From IMG/VR virus record IMGVR_UViG_3300048836_000416: 64,000 bases of DNA; one strand, written 5' to 3'. Source of the stretch: an uncultured virus (IMG/VR IMGVR_UViG_3300048836_000416). Its lineage: Duplodnaviria; Heunggongvirae; Uroviricota; Caudoviricetes. The first letter of the stretch is position 1, and each line of letters starts with the position of its first letter. The position numbers were made by a program, and so were the translations under genes. Shown in pieces: positions 8,501-40,803 of the stretch. The notes beneath the pieces are model-generated. The model saw only the letters and a program-made list of their open reading frames with translations. It did not search any database and had not been told where the DNA came from.

Positions 8501-10180
8501 GCCGGGGACTACACACATATACTTTTAAAGTTATATTCTCCGATCACAGTTGATCCGGATGCCGATCCGGCCACTACTCTGTTCTTTGACCAGGACGGCC
8601 AATCTGGCTACCTTCCTCAAAACGGGGACAAGATTCGTCTCATACTTGATGACGCGGCGAATGGAATAAACACGGCAGCCAGGACATACGAAGGTGATAT
8701 CATTGGGCTTTACGTAGATGGCGCCGACCAGTATGCTATTGTGCCGGCAGTTTTCGGGACCCTCGAAGTTAAGCCTGGATTCTTGATCGAATACTTCACC
8801 CCTGTCACCGGAGAAGCGGAGATATACTACGAAGGTGGTGAGGACTGCTATGAGATAGGTGATCCGGGCACCGAAGGAAGATACCACAAGGGTCCCATCC
8901 AAGACCAAGTTCCTGGTGGTGATCCGGCTACCGGGAAATACACCGGTGGTGATACATACTGGCGTCGTCAGCGGTACACCGAAACTGGCATATACCAGAC
9001 TGAGCACCAGTCCCCGAACCGGCTTATCACAGACCGGTGTGAAGATATTGGCCGGCCGTTTGCTTTGTCTACGGACATCCAGGCTGAGTCCTATAACTCC
9101 AGGGTACGGGTATCGGGCGCGTTTATTCCAAAAAGTTCAATCAACAACCTATCGAGTTGGTCGTCGCTTGACTACAAAGACATCAACGGCCAATGGGGCA
9201 CGATAATGTTCCTTGGTTTCTCGAATAACACCTTGCTTGCGATATGCAAGTTCAAGGTGCAGCCGATCTATGTGAGCAAAGGAGAACTGCTCTACCTGTC
9301 CGGACAAACCAACGTCGGAAGGAGTGATCAGATCATGGAGATTGCTGACGAGTCGGTAACTGATTACGGCACCCACAACCCTGAGTCGGTAATTATTGAA
9401 GGGTCGTATGTGTATTTCTGGGACAAGTTTCAAGGCGCCGTTTGCCGGTACGCCCAGAATGGAGTTGTTCCGATCACGACAAAAATGATCAACCACTTCA
9501 ACGCTATTGGCAAGGAGCGGTTGGCGTTGGCCAGCGGGGACTTGGCGATTGGCGGGTATGACCGGGAGCATCAAATGTATTTCCTATCCTTCTCTGGAGA
9601 AGGCGATACGATAGAGACTATTTCCTATGACGAATTAAAGGGTGGGTGGGGATCGTACTGGTCCTTTAACCCTGGCGCATACGGCAGGATTGGGCAGATG
9701 ATGATCTCGTTTGACCAGTCTGGTGGAATGTGGAAACATTATGAGTCTGAAACCAGATCGAATTTTTATGGAGAACAATACAAGCCGCAGATCACATTCG
9801 TCATTAATGAAGCGCCGGCGCAAGTTAAACGGTTCAAATCCATCCGAGTCATGGCTAACCGTAAGTTCGTGTGCCCCACGATCTCGGTTCCGTTCAACTA
9901 TGATTATTCGAGTGGTCAGGCAAGCAAATTACTTGCGAATCACTTCGGTAATTACGAAGGCCAATGGATGGCAGACTTTTTGAGGGATATGAATGACACC
10001 GACGCCCAGTTCGATGCAATAACCCCGCTGGCGACCAAGCAAGCAAGCGCAATGTTACGCGGCCGGGAACTACGGGGCGAGTTGATGTTCGTTACACTTG
10101 AGGCAGAAGACGGATCACTGTCAACTGTTTTGACCAGGGCGGATGTTTATTTTATCCCGTCGATGGTATCGCATCCATAA
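5570..10180 (+). CDS. Tail nozzle/muzzle (stabilization) protein, crAss-like
   Basis: 1536 aa; N-terminal FTGVLDTDSDPRVI..DYTYAINI and C-terminal beta-propeller-like region (YGTHNPES, YFWD, SYDE..GW.SYWSF.P) resemble crAss/P22 gp10-like nozzle proteins; precedes the ejection genes. Confidence 0.75.
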   Translation: MQLSGQIFTGVLDTDSDPRVISAEDYTYAINILNGYGETPGSLIFAKGTVSYDLELPGGDNKCIGTCEDKQNAALFAFVYNSNGDHGIYKYSLITNSHIVIAQGAFLAFQEAWRINHAKVVNGSLLYWTDAVTDETTVSGNPQRKINAIKADLTKAEYTYELYADLEINLPFANGNTYYFSIIVGNDPNSETEVNEYTADGTYEADPAGGLEWLLTNLRNDYEPVGLSFESCDGCKIKITIPSETGRFFFEPSATDTLMVGTNLYPIDLEDHHIDLLKVPPTCAPTATYFYDAEVSTNNVTRLCAQFRVRYIYDDYERSAWGPVSNIALNTGVDGEVISLLNAIKIVFTDEKFTDPSWMTMIRQVELAFRDGNANDWRLVGRFDACEIGITTQEIYFYNDKQYSVLASDDLSTPATLQVLKPFDFLPIRSLCLEATANAEGNTLLFLGANQENYENPDCIDLSVEPVEFEEDCLIDIIGTVEIVNDANFSDADPDFSAYPLGGIVVYLAGTPYYGISNNPADGSGDGGFIIKGVPRGRYIMRAASYKCSFTNDLSPRYNLANGLEWQRTSAPVIDMAGAVANGLCQYEREIDLGLFTDPVFDLDTETDYGTIQIANAHETEKLLYVGESQDHDPAIVFLEVYLLDNAETYDTQDKRIGAISVERQDLTFTLVSPDTALATEKTDHNGYCWYRAFEDEDETNSTPFGFKVNGVLVDTTPADNPLWPGDYLQMYDDSLAFAVNPNTLYYTAAYQTENRFIFNDGNFSIIGPIQITCQAVADDATTGVDGVIFTYTRTGRTAIAGFDGSAQIAIYVPPLEVPFVVRTRDNDNIIALYLPDFCHDGYPDPDYENVIVTENDTSPVTGPTFQFLLDDMDFATGRFLKGGGEYSFGIVYEDRGNRTPGAIFGSKLKIPVHVDGLTKWQMQWSINSIPPDWATHYRIVRLKNAIHSVYVQWTVPEVIYARIPSQLENPIPTTFAAGDYTHILLKLYSPITVDPDADPATTLFFDQDGQSGYLPQNGDKIRLILDDAANGINTAARTYEGDIIGLYVDGADQYAIVPAVFGTLEVKPGFLIEYFTPVTGEAEIYYEGGEDCYEIGDPGTEGRYHKGPIQDQVPGGDPATGKYTGGDTYWRRQRYTETGIYQTEHQSPNRLITDRCEDIGRPFALSTDIQAESYNSRVRVSGAFIPKSSINNLSSWSSLDYKDINGQWGTIMFLGFSNNTLLAICKFKVQPIYVSKGELLYLSGQTNVGRSDQIMEIADESVTDYGTHNPESVIIEGSYVYFWDKFQGAVCRYAQNGVVPITTKMINHFNAIGKERLALASGDLAIGGYDREHQMYFLSFSGEGDTIETISYDELKGGWGSYWSFNPGAYGRIGQMMISFDQSGGMWKHYESETRSNFYGEQYKPQITFVINEAPAQVKRFKSIRVMANRKFVCPTISVPFNYDYSSGQASKLLANHFGNYEGQWMADFLRDMNDTDAQFDAITPLATKQASAMLRGRELRGELMFVTLEAEDGSLSTVLTRADVYFIPSMVSHP

Positions 10181-26966: not shown

Positions 26967-27233
26967 ATGCCAGTAATAAGAATAACAAATCGTATCGCAA
27001 AGAAAAAGCATCTGTGCAACGCATGTCTTTTTCTTTTTGAGTCAGACTACCGTAGTCTGGGCGCCACCATCTCTGAATACCGGCAGATAATTGCCGCTAA
27101 GAGGGAGAATGGTTATATCCGCCCTGGAGAAGCGTACCAAGAAGTTGTCACTAACGACGAGGGCATGTTCTCATTTAGGCAGAAACCTGCTATTGACCAA
27201 ATTTGCAGAAAATACGACTTATACCCAGACTAA
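26967..27233 (+). CDS. Small Cys-containing hypothetical protein
   Basis: AKKKHLCNAC...IRPGEAY...C pattern; TAATG-coupled to the recombinase. Confidence 0.65.
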   Translation: MPVIRITNRIAKKKHLCNACLFLFESDYRSLGATISEYRQIIAAKRENGYIRPGEAYQEVVTNDEGMFSFRQKPAIDQICRKYDLYPD

Positions 27234-28042
27234 TGTTCAATATACACAAATCAGACAAGAACGCTCCGATCCGTTCTGCCCGGGTTCTTGGATCAAGAAA
27301 GACCAGGTGTGTCCCGTTTGAAGACATCCAAAAGGTCTTGGGTATCTTTGAGAGAGAAGCGTCCTTGTCAAAAAAAGACCGGGCACTGCTATACCAGGAA
27401 CTTTACCCGGAGTGGAAGGATCGCTCCTATGAGACGTATAAAAACCGATGTCGCATCAAAACCGCAGTTGGGTCATGGAGGCTCCTGCTTATGATTGCGC
27501 TCCCCCTGTACACTGGCTTCCGCAGAAGCGACGTGATAAAATTGAAATGGAGCGACCTGCTCTACTTCGGCGCCAACCAGGAACTCGCCGTTCGGCCGCA
27601 GTTCACGATCCTGGAGCAGAAAACCCAACGGTATCGCCGGCCAAGAACTATCCCCCTCGGGGCAGACATTGGGTTTTACATTATGAAGTTTTACGCCCAG
27701 GTAAAGCCTCGGGACCTGGATACCTATATTTTCATCGCAAAAACCAAGTCAAAGACACCTCATATTACGGGCCCCGGGTACTGTGTCAAGATCAACGACG
27801 CCTTTGCCCGGTTCGACATCTTCGACGGCGACGGGAAGGTGGCGCCTCACTCCCTCAGAAAGTCTTACTGCCAGTACATATTCAAGGAATTTGGCTCAAA
27901 CTTTGACGCACTCCTTAAACTCCAAAAAATCCTGGGGCACTCCACAATTGAGATCACCATTAAATACCTGGACGTTGACATCTCCGAATCCACAACCGTA
28001 CATAATGCAATCTCCTTTAGAGGCACAGGCCCTCGTCCTTAA
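27233..28042 (+). CDS. Tyrosine recombinase (mostly catalytic domain)
   Basis: TGFRRSD, EQKT, HSLRK, LGHS and KYL supply the R-K-H-R-H-Y residues; short N-terminus; no obvious IntI-specific insertion. Confidence 0.92.
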   Translation: MFNIHKSDKNAPIRSARVLGSRKTRCVPFEDIQKVLGIFEREASLSKKDRALLYQELYPEWKDRSYETYKNRCRIKTAVGSWRLLLMIALPLYTGFRRSDVIKLKWSDLLYFGANQELAVRPQFTILEQKTQRYRRPRTIPLGADIGFYIMKFYAQVKPRDLDTYIFIAKTKSKTPHITGPGYCVKINDAFARFDIFDGDGKVAPHSLRKSYCQYIFKEFGSNFDALLKLQKILGHSTIEITIKYLDVDISESTTVHNAISFRGTGPRP

Positions 28043-28400: not shown

Positions 28401-28563
28401 CGAATCAATTATGCCATGGGGTATCCACGCCGGCAAAAAAATGGAGGACGTTCCAGACTCGTACCTCCTTTGGCTTTATGAGGTACGAAAGGTTGGCGGC
28501 TCGGTTGGCGCCTATATTGTTGAAAACTTAGACGCCATAAGGCAAAACGTAAATGGCAAATAG
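28384..28563 (+). CDS. 59-aa DUF3820-like protein (absent from the ORF track)
   Basis: Hand translation MERLTDESIMPWGIHAGKKMEDVPDSYLLWLY matches the MPFGKHKG..DVP.SYL.WL pattern. Confidence 0.75.
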   Translation: MERLTDESIMPWGIHAGKKMEDVPDSYLLWLYEVRKVGGSVGAYIVENLDAIRQNVNGK

Positions 28564-30397: not shown

Positions 30398-31345
30398 ATG
30401 TCAAGCACAAACATGGGACAAAAGTACACCATACCAGTGAAACTCCTAAATTTTTTTTTAGGACATCCAAAAAGAGGGGTCATCCTCTCGGCAATGAGGT
30501 TATTTTTTTACATAAAAATAAACTTCGGCGCTTATCTCGCTGGCCGTTCCCGAAAAAAACTCCTCATTCATTTCTCCCAATACGAGTTAAACAAGTACCT
30601 AAAGTGGTTAGACGACCGAGGGTACATTGAAATTGACAGTTCAGGCGGTATTCGCCCAATGTCAACTGAAAACTTTTTGCGGTTCGTTTTCCCCAACGAT
30701 TACAACCGCAAGGGAATCACATTTAAAAAGATCGACCTTCCAAGTAGTGTACTTAAAAATTCCCATGACTGGAAATCATGGGTAAAGGGCCATGGCATTG
30801 CCTGGCTCACCGTAAGTTTACGCTCCGGCGAAACGAAACAAAAGGCCCGCCACTTTGCGGCAGATAATACTGGCATCAACAAAGAAGAGTTAATTATACT
30901 CTCGCCAGGCAGAACCGTATCTGAGCACACCAAAGTAGCACAAGGGCTTTCTTGTTCGTTAATCCAGCGTAGATTCGGTATCGCAAAATCAACCGCATCT
31001 GTTTGGCGGGAACGTGGGCAAATCTTCGGTTATAAGACCGTAAGGGTTGCCAGGAAGATCAAACTACACACGTACCCACAAACCATTGAGTCAGACGACG
31101 AGGCTATTGTTCTCCTCTGGAGAAGCATCTACCGGCTAAGGTCGCAGGAGTCGCCATACATGGGCGCGGCGCCTGTGCAAACGCTTTGGAAAAAGCGGGC
31201 AGAGATTGGCTTATCCAGAAAAAACAGTGAGTCAGGGTTTATGCAGGATGCAGGTATTTTGTACTGCCGAAACGGTTTTGTTGTCGAGGAGCAGCCGGCT
31301 TTAATAGTGTTCAATCGGCAAAAATCTTCTTTTTGGGTGTCTTGA
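30398..31345 (+). CDS. Basic putative DNA-binding protein (possible replication initiator)
   Basis: wHTH-like KYLKWLDDRGYIE and HTH-like LSCSLIQRRFGIAKSTASVW; AT-rich tract follows the gene. Confidence 0.5.
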   Translation: MSSTNMGQKYTIPVKLLNFFLGHPKRGVILSAMRLFFYIKINFGAYLAGRSRKKLLIHFSQYELNKYLKWLDDRGYIEIDSSGGIRPMSTENFLRFVFPNDYNRKGITFKKIDLPSSVLKNSHDWKSWVKGHGIAWLTVSLRSGETKQKARHFAADNTGINKEELIILSPGRTVSEHTKVAQGLSCSLIQRRFGIAKSTASVWRERGQIFGYKTVRVARKIKLHTYPQTIESDDEAIVLLWRSIYRLRSQESPYMGAAPVQTLWKKRAEIGLSRKNSESGFMQDAGILYCRNGFVVEEQPALIVFNRQKSSFWVS

Positions 31346-31475
31346 AAAAAGTCCGAACCAATATATTCTGGCTTGGATTTTATCCATCCAATCTGTTTAT
31401 AAATCTACTTATGAATATATCAATTCTTATATAGATTCTTATATATATTAAAAGCGCAAAAAAAAATCGAAAAAA

Positions 31476-31874
31476 ATGATGAATCTTAACCAGTTATCGT
31501 ACACTATTTTCCAAGGAAACAAGGAAAAAGGATTTTGGGACCAGGAGCGAAACATTGGCGAACTGTTGATGCTTGTGACAACCGAACTGGCCGAGGCCCT
31601 GGAGGCTCACCGGAAAGGCCGCATGTGCCTGGTAAACCCCAGGAATATTTTGCCGCCGTCAATCCCTGATATGAATGCTCCGGCCACAAGCGATCCTGAT
31701 TACGCCATCCAGTTCGCTGCGACAATCAAAGACACTTTCGAGGATGAAATTGCCGACGCCATTATCCGGCTCCTGGATATGTGCGGCGGACTCAATATTG
31801 ACATTGACGCCCATATTCAGGCGAAGATGAAATACAACCGCACCCGTCCACGCTTACACGGAAAGGCGTATTAA
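31476..31874 (+). CDS. MazG-like nucleotide pyrophosphohydrolase
   Basis: LMLVTTELAEALEAHRK ... EDEIADAIIRLLD ... KMKYNRTR. Confidence 0.9.
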   Translation: MMNLNQLSYTIFQGNKEKGFWDQERNIGELLMLVTTELAEALEAHRKGRMCLVNPRNILPPSIPDMNAPATSDPDYAIQFAATIKDTFEDEIADAIIRLLDMCGGLNIDIDAHIQAKMKYNRTRPRLHGKAY

Positions 31875-31928
31875 AAAACTTGCCGCCACCGAATAATATT
31901 TTTACCTTTGCGTAAAAATATAAAAACA

Positions 31929-32339
31929 ATGGTAGCATTAAACAAATTGGATTTGACGGAAAACGTTAGATACTGCCTGGAGAAACTGGCAGACGGGACC
32001 GTGGAGGGGAAAGTGATTGAGTTTCTTTACAGCATCGATCTGATTGACGGCCAGGTAAAGAAGGGCCATCACAAAGAGGCGGATATGAACGCGCTCCAGA
32101 AGGCGCAAACGACGGTGGACCTTGAACACACTGAATATAATTCCCGGGAACTCACCGAGATTCTTGGGATCGAGTGGACCAATTGCTCCAATATCATCAC
32201 CCGGCTCCAGAAGCGGGGGATAGCCGTTCGCCGCACTGACGGACGCAAGCGGTACGTCTCCCTCAAGTGGGAGATTGTTCAACAGTTACACGAGGCCATC
32301 ACCAACGGGCGCATAGTCCCGGCAAAAGAACTCACATGA
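31929..32339 (+). CDS. Winged-helix (MarR-like) transcription regulator
   Basis: ELTEILGIEWTNCSNIITRLQKRGIAVRRTDGRKRYV; TACCTTTG promoter at 31903. Confidence 0.75.
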   Translation: MVALNKLDLTENVRYCLEKLADGTVEGKVIEFLYSIDLIDGQVKKGHHKEADMNALQKAQTTVDLEHTEYNSRELTEILGIEWTNCSNIITRLQKRGIAVRRTDGRKRYVSLKWEIVQQLHEAITNGRIVPAKELT

Positions 32340-32521
32340 GCAATCCGATCCTTTTTACACCAGAAGATTTCCGCCTGGCCGAGGCAGAACAGGCGATCCG
32401 CGACCGCCTAAAGGTCCGACAACCGGAACACACCCCGGAGCCGCCAGAGGTTAAATGCCCCAGGTGTGGCGCCAATGTGATATGTATCCCACTGACCTGT
32501 AAGAGTAACCAATCCCAATAA
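32336..32521 (+). CDS. Small Cys-rich protein
   Basis: CPRCG...C...C motif; stop codon lies 7 nt before attC-like site 1. Confidence 0.55.
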   Translation: MSNPILFTPEDFRLAEAEQAIRDRLKVRQPEHTPEPPEVKCPRCGANVICIPLTCKSNQSQ

Positions 32522-32527
32522 TTATTG

Positions 32528-32595
32528 AAGATAACTGCGGCTTGTACGTCGCGCCGGCGCATAGCCGGTCGGTGTACGGGCAAGCAGGGTTAGCC
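32528..32595 (+). repeat. attC-like hairpin 1
   Basis: AAGATAAC ... imperfect inverted repeat (GCTTG/CAAGC, GTAC/GTAC, CCGGC/GCCGG) ... GTTAGCC. Confidence 0.65.
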
Positions 32596-33040
32596 GAATA
32601 TTCAAATTTAAAACACATCCAACATGAAGAATTTGAAAGTAATAAAACTCGACTCTGATTCGATTGAGTTTGACAACGGCGTGAAGTTGTATTCAAATCA
32701 CGAACAAGATTGCTGCGAAAACCATTATTTAAGCCTTGATGACTTAACGTTAGGGGATTTTGAGGGGCTTGAATTTGACTTAACCAGTGATGATTTTTTT
32801 GAACGAATTGACGGCTACGGAATAGCCCTAAAACCAATTAGTGGACACCCCGTCCGCATTCCAGGATACGGTTCAAACAACGGCTATTATTTATCACACT
32901 TAGACCTAATCGTGACCGATGGGAAGGGCTACGAAAAAACCTATGACATTTCAGAGTGTCAAGTGGTATCCGATTAAGTTTTGGCTAACCATAAACCTTC
33001 CGATGCTGAGCGATTAGCGAAATTAGTCGGAAGGGTGCAG
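32590..33040 (+). mobile_element. Integron-like single-gene cassette (451 bp)
   Basis: Starts at G|TTAGCC; AT-rich ORF is followed by GGCTAAC, the exact complement, then a hairpin ending G|TTATCTT. Confidence 0.6.
32624..32977 (+). CDS. Acidic phage protein with HEQDCCE / GSNNGYY motifs (cassette cargo)
   Basis: 117 aa; motif pair common in phage hypothetical proteins; visibly more AT-rich than the flanks. Confidence 0.8.
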   Translation: MKNLKVIKLDSDSIEFDNGVKLYSNHEQDCCENHYLSLDDLTLGDFEGLEFDLTSDDFFERIDGYGIALKPISGHPVRIPGYGSNNGYYLSHLDLIVTDGKGYEKTYDISECQVVSD

Positions 33041-33047
33041 TTATCTT
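32983..33047 (+). repeat. attC-like hairpin 2
   Basis: GGCTAAC ... ACCTTCCGA / TCGGAAGGGT ... GTTATCTT. Confidence 0.65.
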
Positions 33048-33060
33048 TTAAGTAAAAACA

Positions 33061-33543
33061 ATGGCACGAATAACAGAATCTTTTGTGCGCGAGATTAAGG
33101 CCTTACAGTATCGAGGCGAGATATCCTACTCCAGGATGGTCGATATGTTAAATGAGAAGGCCGCAGAACCAGAATTTTTCAACCAACAACATAAAAATAT
33201 GAAAGGAACAGAGTTTGATCTGGGCGATTTGTCCCAGGCAATTGTACAGCAGGCCGGCCCCGAAATCCTGGCGACAATCAGCAACGAGAAAAAGTTGGAG
33301 AAGGTCGTCAAGTTTATCCTCGAACTGGTCCCTGGTTCGGTATCCACCGCGCTTGTTGAGAACAAGCGGATTGAGTGGGCCGGCCTCGGAGTGTTGGAAC
33401 TTACGCCAACCGCAGCAGGAGTCGGCAAGAACTTCGCCACCGGCGACCCGATCCCATTCCCGGCCGGAAACAAGGTTAAGTTCCGCACGGCAAAGCGGAT
33501 GAAGGAAGCCATCACTCAGCGTACTGGTAAACCGACCAAGTAA
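33061..33543 (+). CDS. HU/IHF-family DNA-binding protein with N-terminal extension
   Basis: RIEWAGLGVLE...GKNFATGDPIPFPAGNKVKFRTAKRMKEAI; alternative start at 33199. Confidence 0.85.
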   Translation: MARITESFVREIKALQYRGEISYSRMVDMLNEKAAEPEFFNQQHKNMKGTEFDLGDLSQAIVQQAGPEILATISNEKKLEKVVKFILELVPGSVSTALVENKRIEWAGLGVLELTPTAAGVGKNFATGDPIPFPAGNKVKFRTAKRMKEAITQRTGKPTK

Positions 33544-33619
33544 AATTGTAAGGAGTCGCAGGTTTAAATCCTGCCGGTGGCGCCTGGCCCCGAAGCGAGA
33601 GGTCTGACTGGCACCTTAT

Positions 33620-33657
33620 AAAAAAAGCCCGCAGCAATTACTCGCTGCGGGCTTTTT
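33620..33657. terminator. Bidirectional terminator
   Basis: AAAAAAGCCCGCAGC-loop-GCTGCGGGCTTTTT at the strand convergence. Confidence 0.85.
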
Positions 33658-33671
33658 CATTTTATATTACT

Positions 33672-34145
33672 TTATCGTGTTGCCATTCCCCCGCCCGGGG
33701 CGATGGCCATAAATCGCTGGCCCAATTCATCCAGGACCTTTGCTGGCATAATTCCGAGCATCTCCTCCCTCATTGCCCAGGCCCGGTTGAAGTAATCCCG
33801 GTTTAGTTTCGGTGATTGGTCTTTACAGCCGCACTCCTCCATAAATATTTTCCAGGCTTCCGCTTTTTTGTAATGCCCTCCTACATCGTAGGTCATTAAA
33901 ACGATTGTGGAGAGTTGGGCTGCGGCATTGGTCCCGGCCTGTTCGTCTACGCGGATGACTGTGGCGTTGTAGTCGTACATAACCATGAGTCCGTCCCCTT
34001 GGTAGGCTGTAACAGGACCGTGACCTGTGTTGACCGTGACAGAAGTTTGGGCTGTTGCCTCAACGGCAAAAATGAGAGTAAGGAGTCCAAGCCAAAGGCC
34101 GGCAATAAAACCCTCGTAAAGTTTTGTTTCTCTGCTTTTTCGCAT
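33672..34145 (-). CDS. Putative exported protein
   Basis: Probable start MRKSRE; hydrophobic stretch ending ATA|Q. Confidence 0.6.
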   Translation of the reverse strand: MRKSRETKLYEGFIAGLWLGLLTLIFAVEATAQTSVTVNTGHGPVTAYQGDGLMVMYDYNATVIRVDEQAGTNAAAQLSTIVLMTYDVGGHYKKAEAWKIFMEECGCKDQSPKLNRDYFNRAWAMREEMLGIMPAKVLDELGQRFMAIAPGGGMATR

Positions 34146-34206
34146 GGCGATTTTTTTAGAGATGAAACTTTCCCGGTGTCGCCGGGTATCGAGGGGGGTG
34201 TTTGGA

Positions 34207-35256
34207 TTATTTAACAAACTGAGGGGAAAGAATGCCTTCGTAGTGATCGCCAAAAAATAAGATTGGGGCGGTCCTTTCTTTGAACTGGAAATTGTCAGCG
34301 AGAGCCAACTGCTTTCCAAGGAAACTGGAAGAAAACAACGCGCCCCAATCAGGCCCCCCAGGAGGGATAGGCAAAGATCGTACCATTTGGCGTCCACCCA
34401 TGGTTTCCTTGAAAGAAACGGTCACAAACCCACCGGCCGCGCTAACGTCAATCGTAGAGTGACCGAAGGTAGACTCCATGGAGGATACGATGGCCTTGAG
34501 TTGTTTGCAACTCACCACGGCATCGAAGTACCCGGGTATTTCTTTTTGGCGAGAGAAGAAGTCAAGGAACGGAGCGCATGTGGTAGCCGGCTGATTCAGG
34601 GTGAAGTCCACCCACTCCGCCTGGAAGATGGCGGAAGATGGCGTTTTTGCAACTTGGAAGTCGCCGCCGAAGCGAAGTAGTTTCACAACTTTGTTGGCCA
34701 TCTCCTTCGAGATGCCGGCCATAAAATCGGCGCCATCGCTTTCATACAGCGACCGGCCGATTGAATTGTACCCTCCAGCGTACACGGCGCCAGATGCGTT
34801 GTCAATCCAGACGTGCTGGAACATCGCGTTAGGCGCCCCGGCGTCGGCAAGGGGCAAGACAGTAGCGATGGCGTCAGCGATCACATTGCCATCCAGCAGT
34901 AATGTACCACGCTCCGGGACTCGGAACTCCGGGTAATTGTCTTCGGTCTGCCCAAAGGTAAGTTTGCCACCACTCCAAACCAGGCTATCCTTCTTGACGG
35001 TAATCTGAGTGTCAAGCCCATCGATGGCGGACAACACCAGGGCAGCCGGCAGCAACACATCGCCGCCACCACCCAATGCCTCCGGGTCGATCCCAACTTT
35101 TACGCTGAGTTCGCCACCTATCCCGGTAACGTAGCCAATCCTGCCCATCACTTCGAGTTTGACGTACTCTTGAACGGGCTCCATAGCCACGTTTGGTAGA
35201 GCGGACGCTGCCAACTGCATGGCCTGTCTTAAAACTTTAGAGTTGATTTGTATCAT
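34207..35256 (-). CDS. DNA sliding clamp (Pol III beta-like), divergent
   Basis: 349 aa; MIQINSKVLRQAMQLA, G.VLLPA, DNYPEF and terminal YEGILSP match the three-domain DnaN layout. Confidence 0.75.
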   Translation of the reverse strand: MIQINSKVLRQAMQLAASALPNVAMEPVQEYVKLEVMGRIGYVTGIGGELSVKVGIDPEALGGGGDVLLPAALVLSAIDGLDTQITVKKDSLVWSGGKLTFGQTEDNYPEFRVPERGTLLLDGNVIADAIATVLPLADAGAPNAMFQHVWIDNASGAVYAGGYNSIGRSLYESDGADFMAGISKEMANKVVKLLRFGGDFQVAKTPSSAIFQAEWVDFTLNQPATTCAPFLDFFSRQKEIPGYFDAVVSCKQLKAIVSSMESTFGHSTIDVSAAGGFVTVSFKETMGGRQMVRSLPIPPGGPDWGALFSSSFLGKQLALADNFQFKERTAPILFFGDHYEGILSPQFVK

Positions 35257-35797: not shown

Positions 35798-36739
35798 CTA
35801 AAAAGGAAGTTCCCCGTCGTCTACCTTAGAACTTGCGTTCTCAACGGGTGGCTGTGCTTGCTCCCATGACCCATCCATTTTGATGTGGCCGTATGGTAGA
35901 ACCCCGGACTGCAACCCAACGTTGGTGCAGTGAGCGGCGAACATACGGAAGTCTCCACCGGTAGCATTATTCGCCGTCAAGGCAGCAAAGGCTTTTCCTA
36001 CCGTTTCGATAAACACCTTCCCTTCGCCCAACTCTTTCGTCAAAAAGGCTTTCGCCTTGTCAACGATGGAAAGCCCGGCAGGAGGAGTAACGGGAGGCGG
36101 AGGCGTTTCGGAAAGTGACAAGCCAAGTGCGGCTGGCGCCGGCATAGGAATGGAAGCGCCATCGGCTCCAACTACATTGCCACCAGTAGCCTTGCACAGT
36201 GTATGTGCGACGGACAGCCAGAAGGTGTCAGCCAGCGCCAGGTCGGTCGGGACTCCTTCGTAGAACCGGCCATTCTCATTCCACGGAAACTTGTTCGGCA
36301 AAAAGTCGCCGCGTGTTTCGGACTTGAATGCGGATGCGGTGGGCAGATCGTCTTTGCCTTGCCGGGGTTTGCGAGCGGTCCATAGGATCATAAAGCGGTT
36401 CTCCGGGTCCTCCCATGCAGGCATATCCATTGCCCCGGCGATACCGTTCATAAGGTTCGGGACAATCGGAGACTTCCAGTGCGACGATAACTGGATTTGG
36501 TAGGGGCGCATCGAAGTGTCTGTGTCAGATTTCGTGGTCACAATCATATTGATGTGCCAGCGGTCCGGGATGCGCCCAATAGCGGGCTTGAACTCCAGGT
36601 CAATGCGATCCAGGTAAACAGACAGGGATTGCGTCGTACTTCCGTCCTGGAATTTGAAGTTGCCGTTTTCGGCGTCGAGGGTGATGTAGCCAACGCTCGC
36701 TCCGGAGCGGGGGCCAACTCGTGATTCGTCACGTGCCAT
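35798..36739 (-). CDS. Putative ssDNA-binding protein
   Basis: Acidic C-terminal tail DDGELPF; own TACATTTG promoter at 36781-36788; upstream of the clamp. Confidence 0.55.
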   Translation of the reverse strand: MARDESRVGPRSGASVGYITLDAENGNFKFQDGSTTQSLSVYLDRIDLEFKPAIGRIPDRWHINMIVTTKSDTDTSMRPYQIQLSSHWKSPIVPNLMNGIAGAMDMPAWEDPENRFMILWTARKPRQGKDDLPTASAFKSETRGDFLPNKFPWNENGRFYEGVPTDLALADTFWLSVAHTLCKATGGNVVGADGASIPMPAPAALGLSLSETPPPPVTPPAGLSIVDKAKAFLTKELGEGKVFIETVGKAFAALTANNATGGDFRMFAAHCTNVGLQSGVLPYGHIKMDGSWEQAQPPVENASSKVDDGELPF

Positions 36740-37608
36740 AATACTGAGTTTGTTTAAAGGTGAACTGTTAAAAGGCGATGCAAATGTAATGATATTTTTA
36801 CTTACAAGCAAAAATATAACTATCATTTACCGAATACCGGCTGCACGCCGGCAGCGTCAAACTTTGAGTTATTTGGGAATAAAAACAAAGTCATCTTCGG
36901 TTACGTCTACATCGTGACTACTATCACCGTCTGCGACGTATGCAACCAATTCGCCGCCTTCCGCATCCGCACCGCTTGCGGTTTCGTCACCGTCTTCTAA
37001 CTCCCCTATATTCACAATCGCGCCTTTTGGAAAGGCGAGTATGTCCGGTGCAGTAATTCGTGCTCTGCCTAATTCTATCATGGCATTATATTTAATTCGT
37101 AATAATCAAGCAACAAGCCCGCCAATCAGGGCGATGAAAGGGTTTGCGTCCCAGTCACGGATTTCACCATCTACCAGGCAGTAATAGTTTCCACCCTTGG
37201 TGCGGTCAACCCAGACCTCTGAATGGTAGCCTTTAATAACCGCCTCGTCGAGCGCATTCATGGCGTCAATACATTCAGGATCGTCGGACCAGCCCTCGAA
37301 TCCTTCGTGTTCCATGGCCATTACAGCGGCCACCAGGAGAGCCAGGACTGGATTAGGAGACTTGCCTACTTCGGCGCCTTTGATCCAGGCTGAATAGGTC
37401 TTGTCTGGGTTCTGGAAGACGGACACTTTCTTGTCGGCCAGGTACGCGACAACGGCCGGGATTTTGTTCTTGAGTGTTTCATACTGTTCCATTGCCTCTG
37501 GGTCACAGATAGCCCGCAGTGTAGGGATAGCCCGGCCGTCGTGAAGGCGAAAGAAGTCCCCGTCTGGGATGGCCATGAAAGATTGGCCATTGTCTTTGAT
37601 AAAATGTG

Positions 37609-38109
37609 TCATACAAAGGTAGGTTTTGGTAGCACCTCCCGAATAAGGGTAGCGCAGAGTTTAAGATTATTTTTACGCGCCTCCGCCGCCTCCGACCCCG
37701 CCGCCCACGCCGCCTCCGACCCCGCCGCCCACGCCGCCTCCGCCGCCGCCGCCCACGCCGCCTCCGCCGCCGCCGCCCACGCCGCCGCCTCCGCCGCCGC
37801 CGCCGCCCACGCCGCCTCCGCCGCCTCCGCTAATTGTTTTTCATTAATCTTCCCTTCGGCAAAATCAAAAGCGGCTTGAAGCGCATCGAGACTTCGCTTG
37901 TCACGCATCAAATGCTTAACGGTTTCGGCGCACTTTGCTTTTGCGAGGGTAAATGTGCGTAGGTCGCACAAGTTGCCTTCTTTAATTAGCCATAGCATCC
38001 AGTCCCCGCGCTCGCACGTTTCCCACGCGGTAGCGAAGTCCATATCGCCCACCCATTCTCTCGCAGGTTTGCAGGCATCAAGTTCGATTAATTTTTCTTT
38101 GAGTGTCAT
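37609..38109 (-). CDS. Protein with Ala-rich tandem repeat
   Basis: LDACKPAREW...RGDWMLWL N-terminus, then (EAAWAAAA/EAAWAAGS)n encoded by a GCC-rich repeat at 37679-37830. Confidence 0.75.
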   Translation of the reverse strand: MTLKEKLIELDACKPAREWVGDMDFATAWETCERGDWMLWLIKEGNLCDLRTFTLAKAKCAETVKHLMRDKRSLDALQAAFDFAEGKINEKQLAEAAEAAWAAAAAEAAAWAAAAEAAWAAAAEAAWAAGSEAAWAAGSEAAEARKNNLKLCATLIREVLPKPTFV

Positions 38110-39037
38110 TTCGATTGAGTGTTTTCAGGTGAAAAAACAAGTTGCTCCTCCGGCTGCATAAAATCCAGGTCCCGGATGCGGTTATAGATAACATCCCACC
38201 CTTGCTTGGCGATCACTTCTTTGAGGAGTTTGGAACACTCCTCTTTCCAGAACGAGGCTCCCTTGTTTTCGGGCATGGCGTCGATGGCGTACTCCGAAGA
38301 GCCGACGTATTTTTCCACGTCGTAATCGGAGAAGTGGCTCAACACCTGGGGAATGGTGCATTCCTTTGCAACGTGTTCGAGCATACACTGCTCCCCGTCG
38401 AACCCGAGCATACCAACTCGCTCCAGGGACAAAAGAATTTCGTCGTCGGACAACTCCCTCGACTTATGGCGCGACACCAGTTCGGCGCAAAGCACCTCGT
38501 TTGTTACGGCCCGGAATACCGGATGATCGTCAAGAAGAACCGGACCCGGCTCCAATATGGTGATCTCTTCCAGTTTTTGGCGTTCATGGGAGAACCAAAG
38601 GTCCCCGGTTTGAAGAGCGTCATTGGGCTCCAGCAAAAGCATGAGTTTCATAATGAGTAAGATTTTAAGAACCGATCCGCCAACCAAGTTTGCGGAGCCG
38701 TTCAAGTAGAGATGATAGGTTCATTTTTTATACTTTAAAATGTCTTTGATTGTGTCAGCCAGGGCGCAAAGTTTTTCACCCTCAATTTCCTCCAGGTCAA
38801 ACCAACGCTCCCCTTCAAACTGAACCGTGCCGAACACCCCGAGGAAAGTAGAATCTTTCCCATCGAAACGAGCAGCCTCATAGGTGTCATCAATGTACGG
38901 ACGGTGGCCGGTAAATTCAATCTCCCAGTCAATGCCTTTGAGGTATTCTACCGCTTCGGCGATAATGGCTTCGGTAGCGGCGCGGAATTTTTCAGCAAAA
39001 CTTTCCATGAGTAATCTTTTTATTGGTGTAAAGATGT

Positions 39038-39094
39038 TTGCGCGGCAGGTGTCGAACCTGCTAACTCATGCCGCATCACACTAATCACGCGCAA
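39038..39094 (-). ncRNA. tRNA-like element (acceptor stem plus T-arm)
   Basis: Minus strand TTGCGCG-N26-GCAGG TTCGACA CCTGC-CGCGCAA. Confidence 0.5.
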
Positions 39095-39599
39095 CCTACC
39101 CGGCCTCATACCGGCTGCCAATTTAGGCGTTTCTTTATACCTCGTCCAGGTCAACAATAGGCTCCGGATTCCACACATGAGGGCATCCAGTGGCCACCCA
39201 GTCACGGACAATAGCCTCCCAGTCAATGCGGCATTCCGGCTGGGCCTCGACAACTTCCCCGGTCACGTCATTACGTCTGATTTTGGGAGCAATTTTGGCG
39301 TATTTGTTCAGCCCGTTTTGGGGGACCTCGACTTCGGCCTGGTAAGATTTCAGCATTGGTGGGAATTTACGGGCCACCAATTCGGAAATTTCGGTATTGC
39401 AGTGAGTTGAGGTGCCGGAGAAGTACCCGTCACACTTATCAGCAGGCAAGTGCGGCACTCCGGACTCTTCGCGGGCTTGGTCAAGGAAGTCAAGGCCAAC
39501 AAACTGGGATGGGATGTAAATTGCGCTTCCTTTGTGGGAGCGGAAATTAACTTGGAAGTTCATAATAATAGTTAGTTAAAGAGTGAAAGAATATTGGTG

Positions 39600-39652
39600 T
39601 AAAGATACGGCCCCTGATATTTTAATGCAAGGGCTAAAACGTCAATTGTCGG
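39600..39652 (-). promoter_or_regulatory. Early promoter copy A
   Basis: Near-duplicate of 43381-43432; -7 box TATCTTTA with upstream TTG. Confidence 0.65.
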
Positions 39653-40803
39653 ATACTGGCAAAACTGGTGATATTTTAACGGACAATCCTAACTTTCCAA
39701 ACGGTAGCGGCGTCTTCCTTCGCCGCCATGCGCTACCCTCCCTTATATGGTGTAGTGTTTGCACTTTCCGTAGTTGCCGAAGCCAGCAGGTACAGGCAGC
39801 CTGGGACCCGGAAAAATTGGCCTCGAAAAGGTGCCCGGTAACGGACACATTTAACGTTGATCGTGCCATGCTCCCTGGATTTGTGCCTCACGAAGGAAGC
39901 GGTGAACAATATACGGAGCAAGGTTCCGCCACCCCATTTTGCGGCCCCGGACAGATGGGGTATGGCCAATAAATTCACTAAGGTTTGGCGATGGCGCAAA
40001 CGGGTACGGCTCTTTCGATACCCAGTGCGCTGTGTACTTAACCAGGCGCCCCAAAGGCCGCACGTTGTAGGTAAAGACATAGCCGCTGTCTACCTCAACG
40101 ACCTGGGCCACTGTGCGCGGTTTTACGCTTTCATTGTACGAGCGCCGGTAAGTGTCTTGCACGGCCTGGGGTAAAGATTCAAACGGGACCCGCTTACCTA
40201 AGTGTTTGAAAGAAACGCGGCCCCGGCTCATGGTGTTAACGGCGGCAATTTCGCCGTGTTGCCAAAATCCCATCGGCCACAATGGGTCCTGAGATGAGCC
40301 AATGTACCAAAATACGCGGCCCCGCTCGTTTGTTTTCCCGTATATCAGGGTATAGCGGTCAAACGTTTCGCCGCCGTTGTCAAAACAAAGTGGTGTCTTT
40401 TTCATATAGCGCTATTATTTAAAGTGAATGTCGTTTATTGTTCCGTTGTACATGGGGTGCGTTTGGATGTCGGCCAAGAACTGCACAAACGGGTCCGTCT
40501 CAGCCGCACGGCGTTCGGCATCCAATTGCTCATATATTGCATCTTCGTGCCGCTCAGGGTCGGTTGCTTTCATCTCGTCAATTGCGCCCCAATTTGTTTT
40601 GTGCATATTGATTTCGTCACGGTCATAAACCGAAGCGGTCCCGTTTCCCACAAGTATGCAGGCAACGAACGGGAATTTTTTGGCGTAGGCGTCTTTGAGG
40701 TCGGCCACCAGGCTATTAACCTCAATGGTAAACCGGTCCTGAAATCTTGAGTTAAGTTCTTCCATGTAAGACATAGCGGTAAATTTTAATATGTTTAAGG
40801 TGG

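Follow-up and report, generated by a model that had tools for sequence, protein, structure and literature searches.

The 64,000-nucleotide stretch of an uncultured virus analysed here (Caudoviricetes, IMG/VR record IMGVR_UViG_3300048836_000416; "the window" denotes this whole stretch) contains at 32528–33047 a short AT-rich open reading frame (ORF) between two imperfect hairpins, and this locus comprises a mobile single-gene cassette and the site in which it resides. The mobile unit spans about 32531–32988 and consists of the upstream hairpin (hairpin 1) and the ORF; the downstream hairpin (hairpin 2), with the feet AAGATAAC and GTTATCTT, is the resident site. The unit boundaries recur in other contigs, a relative has an empty site, hairpin 1 is present in 20 other contigs, the cassette ends are complementary arms, and cassettes of the same kind form arrays elsewhere; hence, the element works like an integron cassette. 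The best explanation, which we consider probable, is site-specific recombination of folded hairpin sites.

The initial annotation, made from the window sequence alone, had described the ORF as a mobile single-gene cassette with attC-like hairpins and crosswise-complementary cores. This view is supported by the comparisons below; it was right in kind, and wrong in the limits of the unit and in the claim of novelty. The features that it listed are all present, including the TAAC starts and GTTA ends of the hairpins and the AT-rich ORF, whose GC content is 0.345–0.435 against 0.56–0.59 in the flanks. The outer arms are complementary at 11 of 11 positions (32528–32538 and 33037–33047), a match 3 bp longer than the 8 bp seen originally, and nested inside them are the inner arms, complementary at 10 of 11 positions (32588–32598 and 32980–32990). 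The hairpin sites, 67 bp (32529–32595) and 64 bp (32983–33046) long, are co-oriented and 450 bp apart, with the feet TAACT/GGTTA and TAACC/AGTTA, respectively; hairpin 1 is GC-rich, whereas the 8-bp stem of hairpin 2 is perfect, with no single-base bulge, and its spacers are asymmetric (6 and 5 nt). As had been claimed, no sigma-70-like promoter was called from 32528 to 32623, and the hairpins themselves gave no promoter-like call.

Boundaries of the mobile unit

The ORF could move together with either of the two hairpins. In the initial annotation, the breakpoints were placed at G|TT on the plus strand (32589 and 33040), and the unit was the ORF with hairpin 2, giving a 451-bp circle (32590–33040) that is correct as arithmetic. 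In the other alternative, hairpin 1 is moved with the ORF, and hairpin 2 is left behind.

When viral contigs were searched with the ORF, 56 loci were obtained. One of them, L003, belongs to a 38.5-kb contig (about 51% GC) of a distantly related phage. A 471-bp high-scoring segment pair (32532–33002) is 98.7% identical between the two, with near-identity from the TAAC at 32532 to the TAAC at 32989, whereas the rest of the window has only one 58-bp DNA stretch in common with that contig, and the proteins are 30–57% identical. The hairpin downstream of the L003 cassette has another sequence and the same layout as hairpin 2 (AAC, 6 nt, 8-bp stem, a loop of approximately 22 nt, 8-bp stem, 5 nt, GTTA), with compensatory changes on both sides of the stem. 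Thus, hairpin 1 travels with the ORF, and hairpin 2 stays.

We also aligned Logan contigs of four public runs to 32000–33700. The empty form envisaged in the initial annotation is represented by one of these contigs (X3 record 16; 1,151 nt, depth 7.5, flanks about 92% identical), where 32136–32530 is followed by five other letters and then by 32989–33174. This contig lacks exactly 458 bp, 32531–32988, and retains the 84-aa gene upstream, hairpin 2 and the HU-like gene downstream; it is an empty site, and the limits of the unit in the window are settled by it. The breakpoints (32531–32535 and 32988/32989) lie inside TAAC. Since they are found at the TAAC feet (32531/32532 and 32988/32989), and not at G|TT of the plus strand, the unit is hairpin 1 plus the ORF. 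By symmetry, such breakpoints correspond to G|TTA on the minus strand, that is, on the strand opposite to the one proposed initially.

Other cargo is observed at the same place. The contig X1 record 1 matches the window up to 32535 (..AAGATAAC) and diverges after it. In two runs, the core of hairpin 1 (32532–32585) forms a contig of its own with approximately twice the depth of the flanks (64 versus 33 and 19.9 versus 7.5), and at least four different sequences follow this core (past 32596–32602).

Among GenBank phages, blastn with 31400–34400 produced no close relative of the phage, the only match being the ORF in Winogradskyella phage Peternella_1 (69%). The relatives of the HU-like neighbour are limited to one distant locus in viral contigs, with none in metagenome contigs.

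The family of GC-type sites

Hairpin 1 is a widespread site. Its exact 25-nt piece was found at 4 viral and 20 metagenome loci, which, with four counted twice, make 20 distinct contigs. The 5' half of the hairpin is identical in 23 of the 25 aligned rows (the window included); one of the two deviating rows ends at a contig edge, and the other has no 5' half. The upstream flanks are different in each context as far as (T)AAC, and downstream there are 18 different sequences, which diverge 4–5 nt past GTTAGCC.

For 18 of the 22 cassettes following this hairpin, an end arm reverse-complementary to the first 10 bases (at most two mismatches) was found a few nucleotides past the stop codon, and a site of about 70 nt comes next. 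Among the four cassettes with no end arm, two have fewer than 225 nt remaining, and two have 310 and 503 nt. These next sites can be sorted into a small number of types, and one type, TAAC-TCCAAG ... CGACA-GTTA, matches the L003 hairpin and, more distantly, hairpin 2.

The 17 GC-type sites from other contigs form an alignment of 73 columns, with compensatory changes in 9 of the 16 predicted pairs, and a covariance model (R2) was built from them. Hairpin 1 scores 60.7 bits on the plus strand and 13.7 on the minus strand, a high score being expected because its close relatives are in the training set. For hairpin 2, which is outside the training set, the score is 25.8 bits (E 1.2e-4 over 317 kb), and the matching strand is that of hairpin 1. 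The genes around GC-type sites encode DnaB-type helicases, a GH108 lysin and a phage replication-protein domain, with N6/N4 methyltransferases as cargo; no integrase was found among these neighbours.

Cassette arrays and AT-type sites

The homologues of the ORF are flanked by AAC/GTT hairpins and complementary arms on both sides at 13 of the 56 loci, as the initial annotation would have it, and by one arm only at 2 more; the arms vary between cassettes. We scanned contigs for arrays, defined as GTTA+N6 followed by the complementary N6'+TAAC, with an expectation of at most 1.75 perfect pairs per contig. The arrays occur in AT-rich viral contigs that have homologues of the ORF. A complete 46-kb contig (G001, rated 100% complete, with no tyrosine recombinase) contains six consecutive perfect cassettes (L062 17207–20166, that is, G001 37207–40166). 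A 29-kb contig (G002) has an array of 10 perfect cassettes, or 13 if one mismatch is allowed (L064 6461–11945), and one further isolated perfect pair outside the array; in G003, the array comprises about 7 cassettes. Each cassette in these arrays consists of one small ORF on the plus strand.

The sites between these cassettes (AT-type) start with TAACG and end with TGTTA in all 24 cases and show compensatory changes in 10 of the 16 predicted pairs. For 26 cassettes with 24 distinct arms, the mean number of mismatches is 0.31 of 6 between a cassette's own arms and 3.75 of 6 between the arms of different cassettes. All 26 have at most one mismatch in the six variable arm positions, and complementarity always stops at 10 bp. 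A covariance model built from AT-type sites (R1; TAACG...TGTTA) detects further sites in L004, L013, L025 and L028, the last one being Winogradskyella phage Peternella_1, a cultured phage with the DUF7448 cassette and one more cassette. The window sites are not found by R1; they are assigned to the GC-type relatives, and not to the AT-type subfamily.

As the arm pattern is symmetric, the ownership of a hairpin can be assigned only by comparisons. The hairpin is kept with the downstream ORF, while the upstream flank changes, in the pairs window/L003, L079/L091, L086/L100 and G002/G003; in L103/L105 this association is partly kept, in the outer stem. The right boundary is sharp at TAAC in all five pairs and also in L025/L028.

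A different arrangement was observed in L106 at about 575–600. Here a homologue of the G002 8727–9148 cassette has no hairpin before it, and the cassette's own end arm almost abuts its start arm (..GCGTATAAG-TGC-TGTTATACGC..), so that the site looks like a site minus its hairpin.

Signal in the window and the chance explanation

Taken alone, the window sequence provides weak evidence for the feature against chance, and it is only because of the comparisons that the feature is shown to be real. When folded as single-stranded DNA and compared with shuffles, hairpin 1 has z-scores of −1.43 (plus strand) and −0.68 (minus strand), and hairpin 2, of −2.23 and −1.74. In 300 dinucleotide-type shuffles of 32400–33200 (801 bp), a perfect 11-mer inverted repeat occurred in 13 and a nested pair in 1; allowing for looking everywhere, about 0.3 nested pairs are expected by chance per 64-kb window. 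Pairs of GTTA+N6 and N6'+TAAC are not enriched across the window (9 found versus 11.2 expected), the arm motifs have no extra copies in it besides the pair itself, and a scan of the window for TAAC...GTTA hairpins gave nothing convincing besides hairpin 1. No Rfam family was found at the sites of the window, L003, L005 and L011, with weak chance-level matches only.

A phage moron is an extra gene with its own promoter and terminator and no defined recombination sites. The locus could be an ordinary moron of this kind, that is, an acquired AT-rich gene with terminator-like hairpins and chance inverted repeats, and indeed it is a single extra gene of deviant composition between two resident genes. 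The non-significant folding of the hairpins, the frequency of nested repeats expected by chance and the lack of an array are in line with this explanation. Vice versa, the junctions are precise and recurrent, the same boundaries being observed in L003, in the empty-site contig and in the 20 other contigs, the arms are complementary at 18 of 22 cassettes, and hairpin 2 is recognised by a model derived from the sites of other phages. The recurrence of the boundaries excludes chance plus terminators, and we regard a moron as very improbable.

Site-specific recombination versus exchange by homology

The next alternative is that the hairpins of about 60 nt serve as portable homology. As conserved linkers, perhaps with a role in termination or processing, they would allow genes to be swapped between them by general recombination or by phage single-strand annealing of the RecT/Erf type, a scheme already put forward for the PeSL (promoter-early stem-loop) motifs of T4-type phages; the breakpoints at the feet would then simply mark where homology stops. 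The type A site (hairpin 1), identical over at least 25 nt in 20 contigs, is long and conserved enough for that, a RecT gene lies beside the G001 array, no dedicated recombinase travels with the cassettes, a hairpin loop has been exchanged independently of its cassette (L080/L095), and some breakpoints are away from the feet. However, complementarity between the first and the last 10 bp of a cassette is not required for exchange by homology, and yet it is observed in 26 of 26 AT-type and 18 of 22 GC-type cassettes. Moreover, a type A hairpin sits in a type B site (hairpin 2) with little beyond TAAC in common at the left junction, and the stems covary rather than keep their sequence. We thus treat portable homology as a secondary possibility, rather unlikely and still the most serious of the competing mechanisms.

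Several observations weigh against site-specific recombination of folded sites as well. The folding of the window hairpins is not significantly above that of shuffles, and no integron-type pair of extrahelical bases (T-N6-G) can be assigned in them; the fold of hairpin 1 has several bulges, none of which is assignable as an extrahelical base, and AAC and GTT are unpaired in the minimum-energy fold of hairpin 2. The window has a single cassette and no array, and its sites are not recognised by R1 (7.8 and 4.6 bits, E about 1 and 5 in 2.5 kb). The empty site comes from a single assembled metagenome contig and is not letter-perfect, having GCAAC in place of the expected ATAA, with one extra C. 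Neither the window nor any of 13 related cassette-bearing viral contigs was found to encode an integron integrase (IntI).

There are also exceptions to the joint transfer of a hairpin and its downstream ORF, which belong to the same side of the argument. L080 and L095 share a cassette and have different hairpin loops, and, conversely, L079 and L093 share the loop and the last 15 nt of the upstream flank and have different downstream cassettes. One nearly identical 48-nt hairpin (TAAC to GTTA) occurs four times with different arms on both sides (Table 1); hence, hairpins are either separable from both neighbours or homogenised within arrays. Some pairs of homologues break elsewhere, at the ATG codon (L011/L013) or within the gene. 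Such cases may be due to a second crossover point or to similar hairpins having been exchanged.

Layout of the locus and the cargo protein

The window, a section of a large phage-like genome, has genes for proteins of 1,500 to 2,600 aa, for a primase-polymerase/helicase, a sliding-clamp homologue and a tyrosine recombinase, and for a C5 methylase and a GroEL-like chaperonin. The coordinates are collected in Table 1.

Table 1. Features of the cassette locus, its surroundings and a recurrent hairpin from other contigs.
Feature	Position	Strand	Comment
Resident upstream gene	32267..32521	+	84 aa, no family; stop codon 7 nt before the left arm; also beside the empty site in the relative's contig
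Left outer arm AAGATAAC	32528..32535	+	5' foot of the resident site, split off by the cassette; left junction at 32531-32535
Hairpin site 1 (type A), cassette-owned	32526..32598	+	Scored by model R2; recurs in 20 other contigs
Cassette start arm GTTAGCCGAA	32589..32598	+	9 of 10 positions complementary to 32980-32989
Cargo ORF, DUF7448, 117 aa	32624..32977	+	Match to PF24240; small all-beta protein (predicted) with conserved His/Cys positions
Cassette end arm TTTGGCTAAC	32980..32989	+	Right junction at 32988/32989; identity with L003 stops at 32989, where the empty-site contig picks up
Mobile unit (hairpin 1, ORF and end arm)	32531..32988	+	458 bp missing in X3 record 16; near-identity with L003 stops at 32989
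Hairpin site 2 (type B), resident docking site	32980..33049	+	8-bp stem 32996-33003/33027-33034; match to model R2
Right outer arm GTTATCTT	33040..33047	+	3' foot of the resident site
Resident downstream gene, HU-like DNA-binding protein	33061..33543	+	PF00216, E 5.7e-13; not a cassette
Third, lone site of the hairpin family	36817..36871	-	Model R2, 24.7 bits, E 2.5e-4; between two minus-strand genes
Tyrosine recombinase of the phage	27203..28042	+	PF00589, 46.6 bits; candidate enzyme only, no evidence linking it to the cassette
48-nt hairpin copies	L064 9148-9189, 9969-10010, 11178-11219; L066 1227-1268		Between four different cassette pairs

The third site (TAAC-TCAAAG ... TGATA-GTTA) lies between the minus-strand genes 36869–37081 and 35798–36826 and is co-oriented with both; no cassette or partner arms were found near it, and it may be an unoccupied docking site. 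No complementary arm was found after the stop codon of the HU-like gene either.

Variation in relatives is not restricted to the cassette. In the X20 contig, the segment 32500–33113 (the end of the 84-aa gene, the cassette, hairpin 2 and the start of the HU-like gene) is swapped for 74 other letters. At 33174–33176, in the N-terminal part of the HU-like gene, the relatives' contigs from two runs have 140 extra letters, and the contigs of other runs break there, so this is a variable spot inside a gene. The 58-bp stretch common with the contig of L003 (window 33555–33612 versus G006 28413–28470, in L075; 84% identical) is 3' of the HU-like gene and just 5' of a strong terminator at 33622–33657, where Rfam leader- and terminator-like matches were obtained. 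On the other side, a very AT-rich intergenic stretch (31300–31475, GC 0.27) between the ORF 30398–31345 (315 aa, low GC, no family) and a MazG-like pyrophosphatase gene may be another acquired segment.

The cargo ORF matches PF24240 (DUF7448; E 7.7e-7, 29.9 bits, cut-off 27), which is its only Pfam match; in PHROGs, there is only a weak match to a family of unknown function. Homologues of DUF7448 are common in phage contigs. The residues His26, Cys30, Cys31, Glu32, His34, Cys112 and Gln113 are near-invariant in the alignment, and this conservation of His, Cys, Glu and Gln suggests a metal site. The predicted structure (pLDDT 92.1) is all-beta, and no convincing solved relatives of the fold were found (best E 0.34 by Foldseek against PDB; best Z 3.8 by VIA-align against 48,161 chains), which does not establish a new fold.

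Candidate recombinases

The only tyrosine recombinase of the window (27203–28042) is of a generic type and is encoded 4.5 kb from the cassette. It does not match the integron-integrase model TIGR02249, and its best NCBIfam score is 39 bits versus a cut-off of 220. PF00589 is present in 1 of the 13 cassette-bearing viral contigs, most of which are fragments, and in neither of the two that are at least 90% complete.

The single PF00589 protein of these contigs, a Xer-like tyrosine recombinase of 269 aa, is encoded in G003, where its gene starts about 50 nt past the last cassette of the array (L066 3631–4440; L059 1213–2022), with a DnaB-type helicase gene further downstream. This protein scores 153.9 against the TIGR02249 cut-off of 265 and is under all curated cut-offs; its closest solved structure is archaeal XerA (4a8e), and it is 21% identical to the 27203–28042 enzyme.

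RecT-family single-strand-annealing proteins are also encoded near cassettes (L003 5037–5888; L062 15619–16413), the call being confirmed by Pfam for G001 and judged from sequence only for L003. In G001, the array is directly downstream of the genes for DUF1351, RecT and a metallo-beta-lactamase-fold protein.

Elements of the IS200/IS605 type move in a hairpin-guided and strand-specific manner, have two subterminal hairpins, and their junctions are adjacent to tetranucleotides, with no target duplication; IS608 is inserted 3' of a tetranucleotide. A similar single-strand "peel and paste" by an enzyme of the HUH/Y1 type, with a cut at TAAC beside the hairpin and insertion 3' of TAAC without target duplication, could be invoked for the cassette. 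In its favour, TAAC is found at both junctions, on the 5' side of an imperfect hairpin; the small element is not flanked by a target duplication, and its breakpoints look strand-specific. However, there is no Y1/HUH transposase (TnpA); the cassette encodes DUF7448, and the cargo of other cassettes consists of methyltransferases and unrelated small ORFs. This mechanism also does not predict a unit with no hairpin at the right end or the 10-bp complementarity of ends 400 bp apart, whereas the cassettes have one hairpin per unit and mutually complementary ends. Finally, one site of such architecture was recombined by IntI1, a tyrosine recombinase, according to the part of the published work considered here (PMC9892861), the match between the sites being made by eye. 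We consider this mechanism improbable, much less likely than exchange by homology.

Comparison with known cassette systems

In integrons, as described in the part of the source used here (PMC3053210), attC sites are imperfect palindromes of 57–141 bp, with an inverse core (RYYYAAC) on one side and a core (GTTRRRY) on the other; the bottom strand, once folded, is bound by the integron integrase, a single strand is exchanged, and recognition is guided by two extrahelical bases. The cassettes studied here are like integron cassettes in the size of the palindrome, the AAC/GTT cores, the complementarity of the start to the inverse core at the far end, the single small and mostly promoterless ORF, the co-oriented arrays, the crossover at one foot, the self-complementary empty site and the presence of methyltransferases among the cargo. 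AAC and GTT are present at both window sites, and the degenerate positions RYYY/RRRY fit partially (AGATAAC, 2 of 4; GGCTAAC, 3 of 4; GTTAGCC, 3 of 4; GTTATCT, 2 of 4). Unlike in integron cassettes, the paired foot is 10 bp (GTTA+N6) and not 7 bp, IntI was not found in the contigs listed above, and on the coding strand the window site stands in front of the ORF, so that the ORF is inverted. The coding strand reads ..TAA|C-hairpin-GTTA.., with breakpoints at the 5' foot, which is the topology of the attC bottom strand.

Clusters of attC sites with no integrase have already been reported for virulent phages, and the system is thus not undescribed, contrary to the initial annotation. In the sections of Qi et al. 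2023 (PMC9892861) used here, 10,705 phage genomes gave 3 integrons, one lone integrase and 17 small integrase-less clusters of two or more predicted attC sites. IntI1 recombined five of the six attC sites tested, which came from three virulent phages; for Polaribacter phage P12002L, attC2 was recombined and attC1 was not (PMC9892861). We found that in P12002L the methyltransferase gene gp35 is flanked by the arms GTTAGGCACA and AGTGCCTAAC (L060 29237–30011), and its flanking sites are the published attC1 and attC2, as matched by eye to the primer list, in the portion of that paper covered (PMC9892861). Hence, the architecture described here overlaps with what is called attC in phages. P12002L has no overall excess of arm pairs, with one clear cassette around the methyltransferase gene; in Tetrasphaera phage TJE1, which carries a published cluster of attC sites lacking an integrase (CALIN), there is no excess of arm pairs under the 10-bp criterion (29 found versus 28.8 expected). 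By the definition of a CALIN as given in the same sections (at least two close attC sites, no IntI; PMC9892861), the window, with two co-oriented putative attC sites and no IntI, may be comparable. The long arrays, one cassette in two unrelated phages, the empty site, the 10-bp arms, the invariant TAACG/TGTTA feet and the position of the site before the ORF go beyond what those sections of Qi et al. describe. No other descriptions of attC, CALIN or integron-like elements in phages were found in our literature search, with preprint supplements outside its scope.

The element also resembles PeSL of T4-type phages, which are repeated intergenic stem-loop motifs associated with modular shuffling (PMC2839356, PMC4122927, as far as the parts of these reports used here describe them). 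In both cases, stem-loop motifs flank small unknown ORFs in variable regions and coincide with the boundaries of insertions, deletions or replacements. Unlike PeSL, which are promoter-terminator motifs acting by homology according to the same parts, the sites described here keep their structure and 4–5 nt of the feet, and their sequence varies. Each cassette has its own complementary arm pair, which, unlike PeSL, points to a mechanism with folded sites.

We conclude that the element is a variant of the integron-type cassettes and of the attC clusters of phages. It is not filed as a proven member of either, because the integrase is absent and the extrahelical bases are unassignable.

Proposed mechanism

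Under site-specific recombination of folded sites, the cassette would consist of a structured recombination site of about 60 nt (hairpin 1) followed by the promoter-poor AT-rich DUF7448 ORF, and would have come from a pool of single-gene cassettes moving among unrelated phages. It would have been inserted in the 5' foot (TAA|C) of the resident hairpin 2, between the 84-aa gene and the HU-like gene. Each cassette starts with GTTA+N6 and ends with the complementary N6'+TAAC. In a free circle, the N6'+TAA end would meet C-hairpin-GTTA+N6; the hairpin would then have one of the two ends on either side, and these would pair as a duplex foot of about 10 bp; such pairing in the circular form explains why every cassette has a private complementary pair.

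A recombinase, most likely of the tyrosine family and encoded by the phage or by its host, would recognise the folded single strand, as in integrons. Strand exchange would occur at AA|C of the 5' foot between the cassette site and the resident site, and insertion or excision would alter nothing else. With the coding strand as the crossover strand, the site precedes its ORF, opposite to the usual integron layout.

Implications

We tentatively suggest, as a possibility with the odds against it, that phages exchange cassettes in an integron-like way through a system of their own that does not depend on IntI. Single-gene cassettes, each led by a hairpin with AAC/GTT feet and private 10-bp arms and opposite in orientation to the bacterial ones, would circulate among unrelated lytic phages of at least two composition classes (marine-type contigs of about 31% GC and wastewater-type contigs of about 50% GC), dock at hairpin sites in the region of the replication module and build arrays of up to 13. 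The enzyme could be of phage or host origin, for example, a Xer-like one as beside the G003 array.

If accessory genes of phages, such as small ORFs of unknown function and DNA methyltransferases, are transferred between unrelated phages as precise cassettes, a part of phage mosaicism would be site-specific and predictable rather than accidental. The genes that phages exchange, among which functions in host takeover and counter-defence are likely to be frequent, could then be recognised as a pool. Such transfer would also offer natural docking sites for the laboratory addition of genes to phages, and phages and bacterial integrons would be linked in a common cassette market. The presence of arrays, of an empty site and of one cassette in two phages suggests that the phenomenon is more active and widespread than in the 2023 record.

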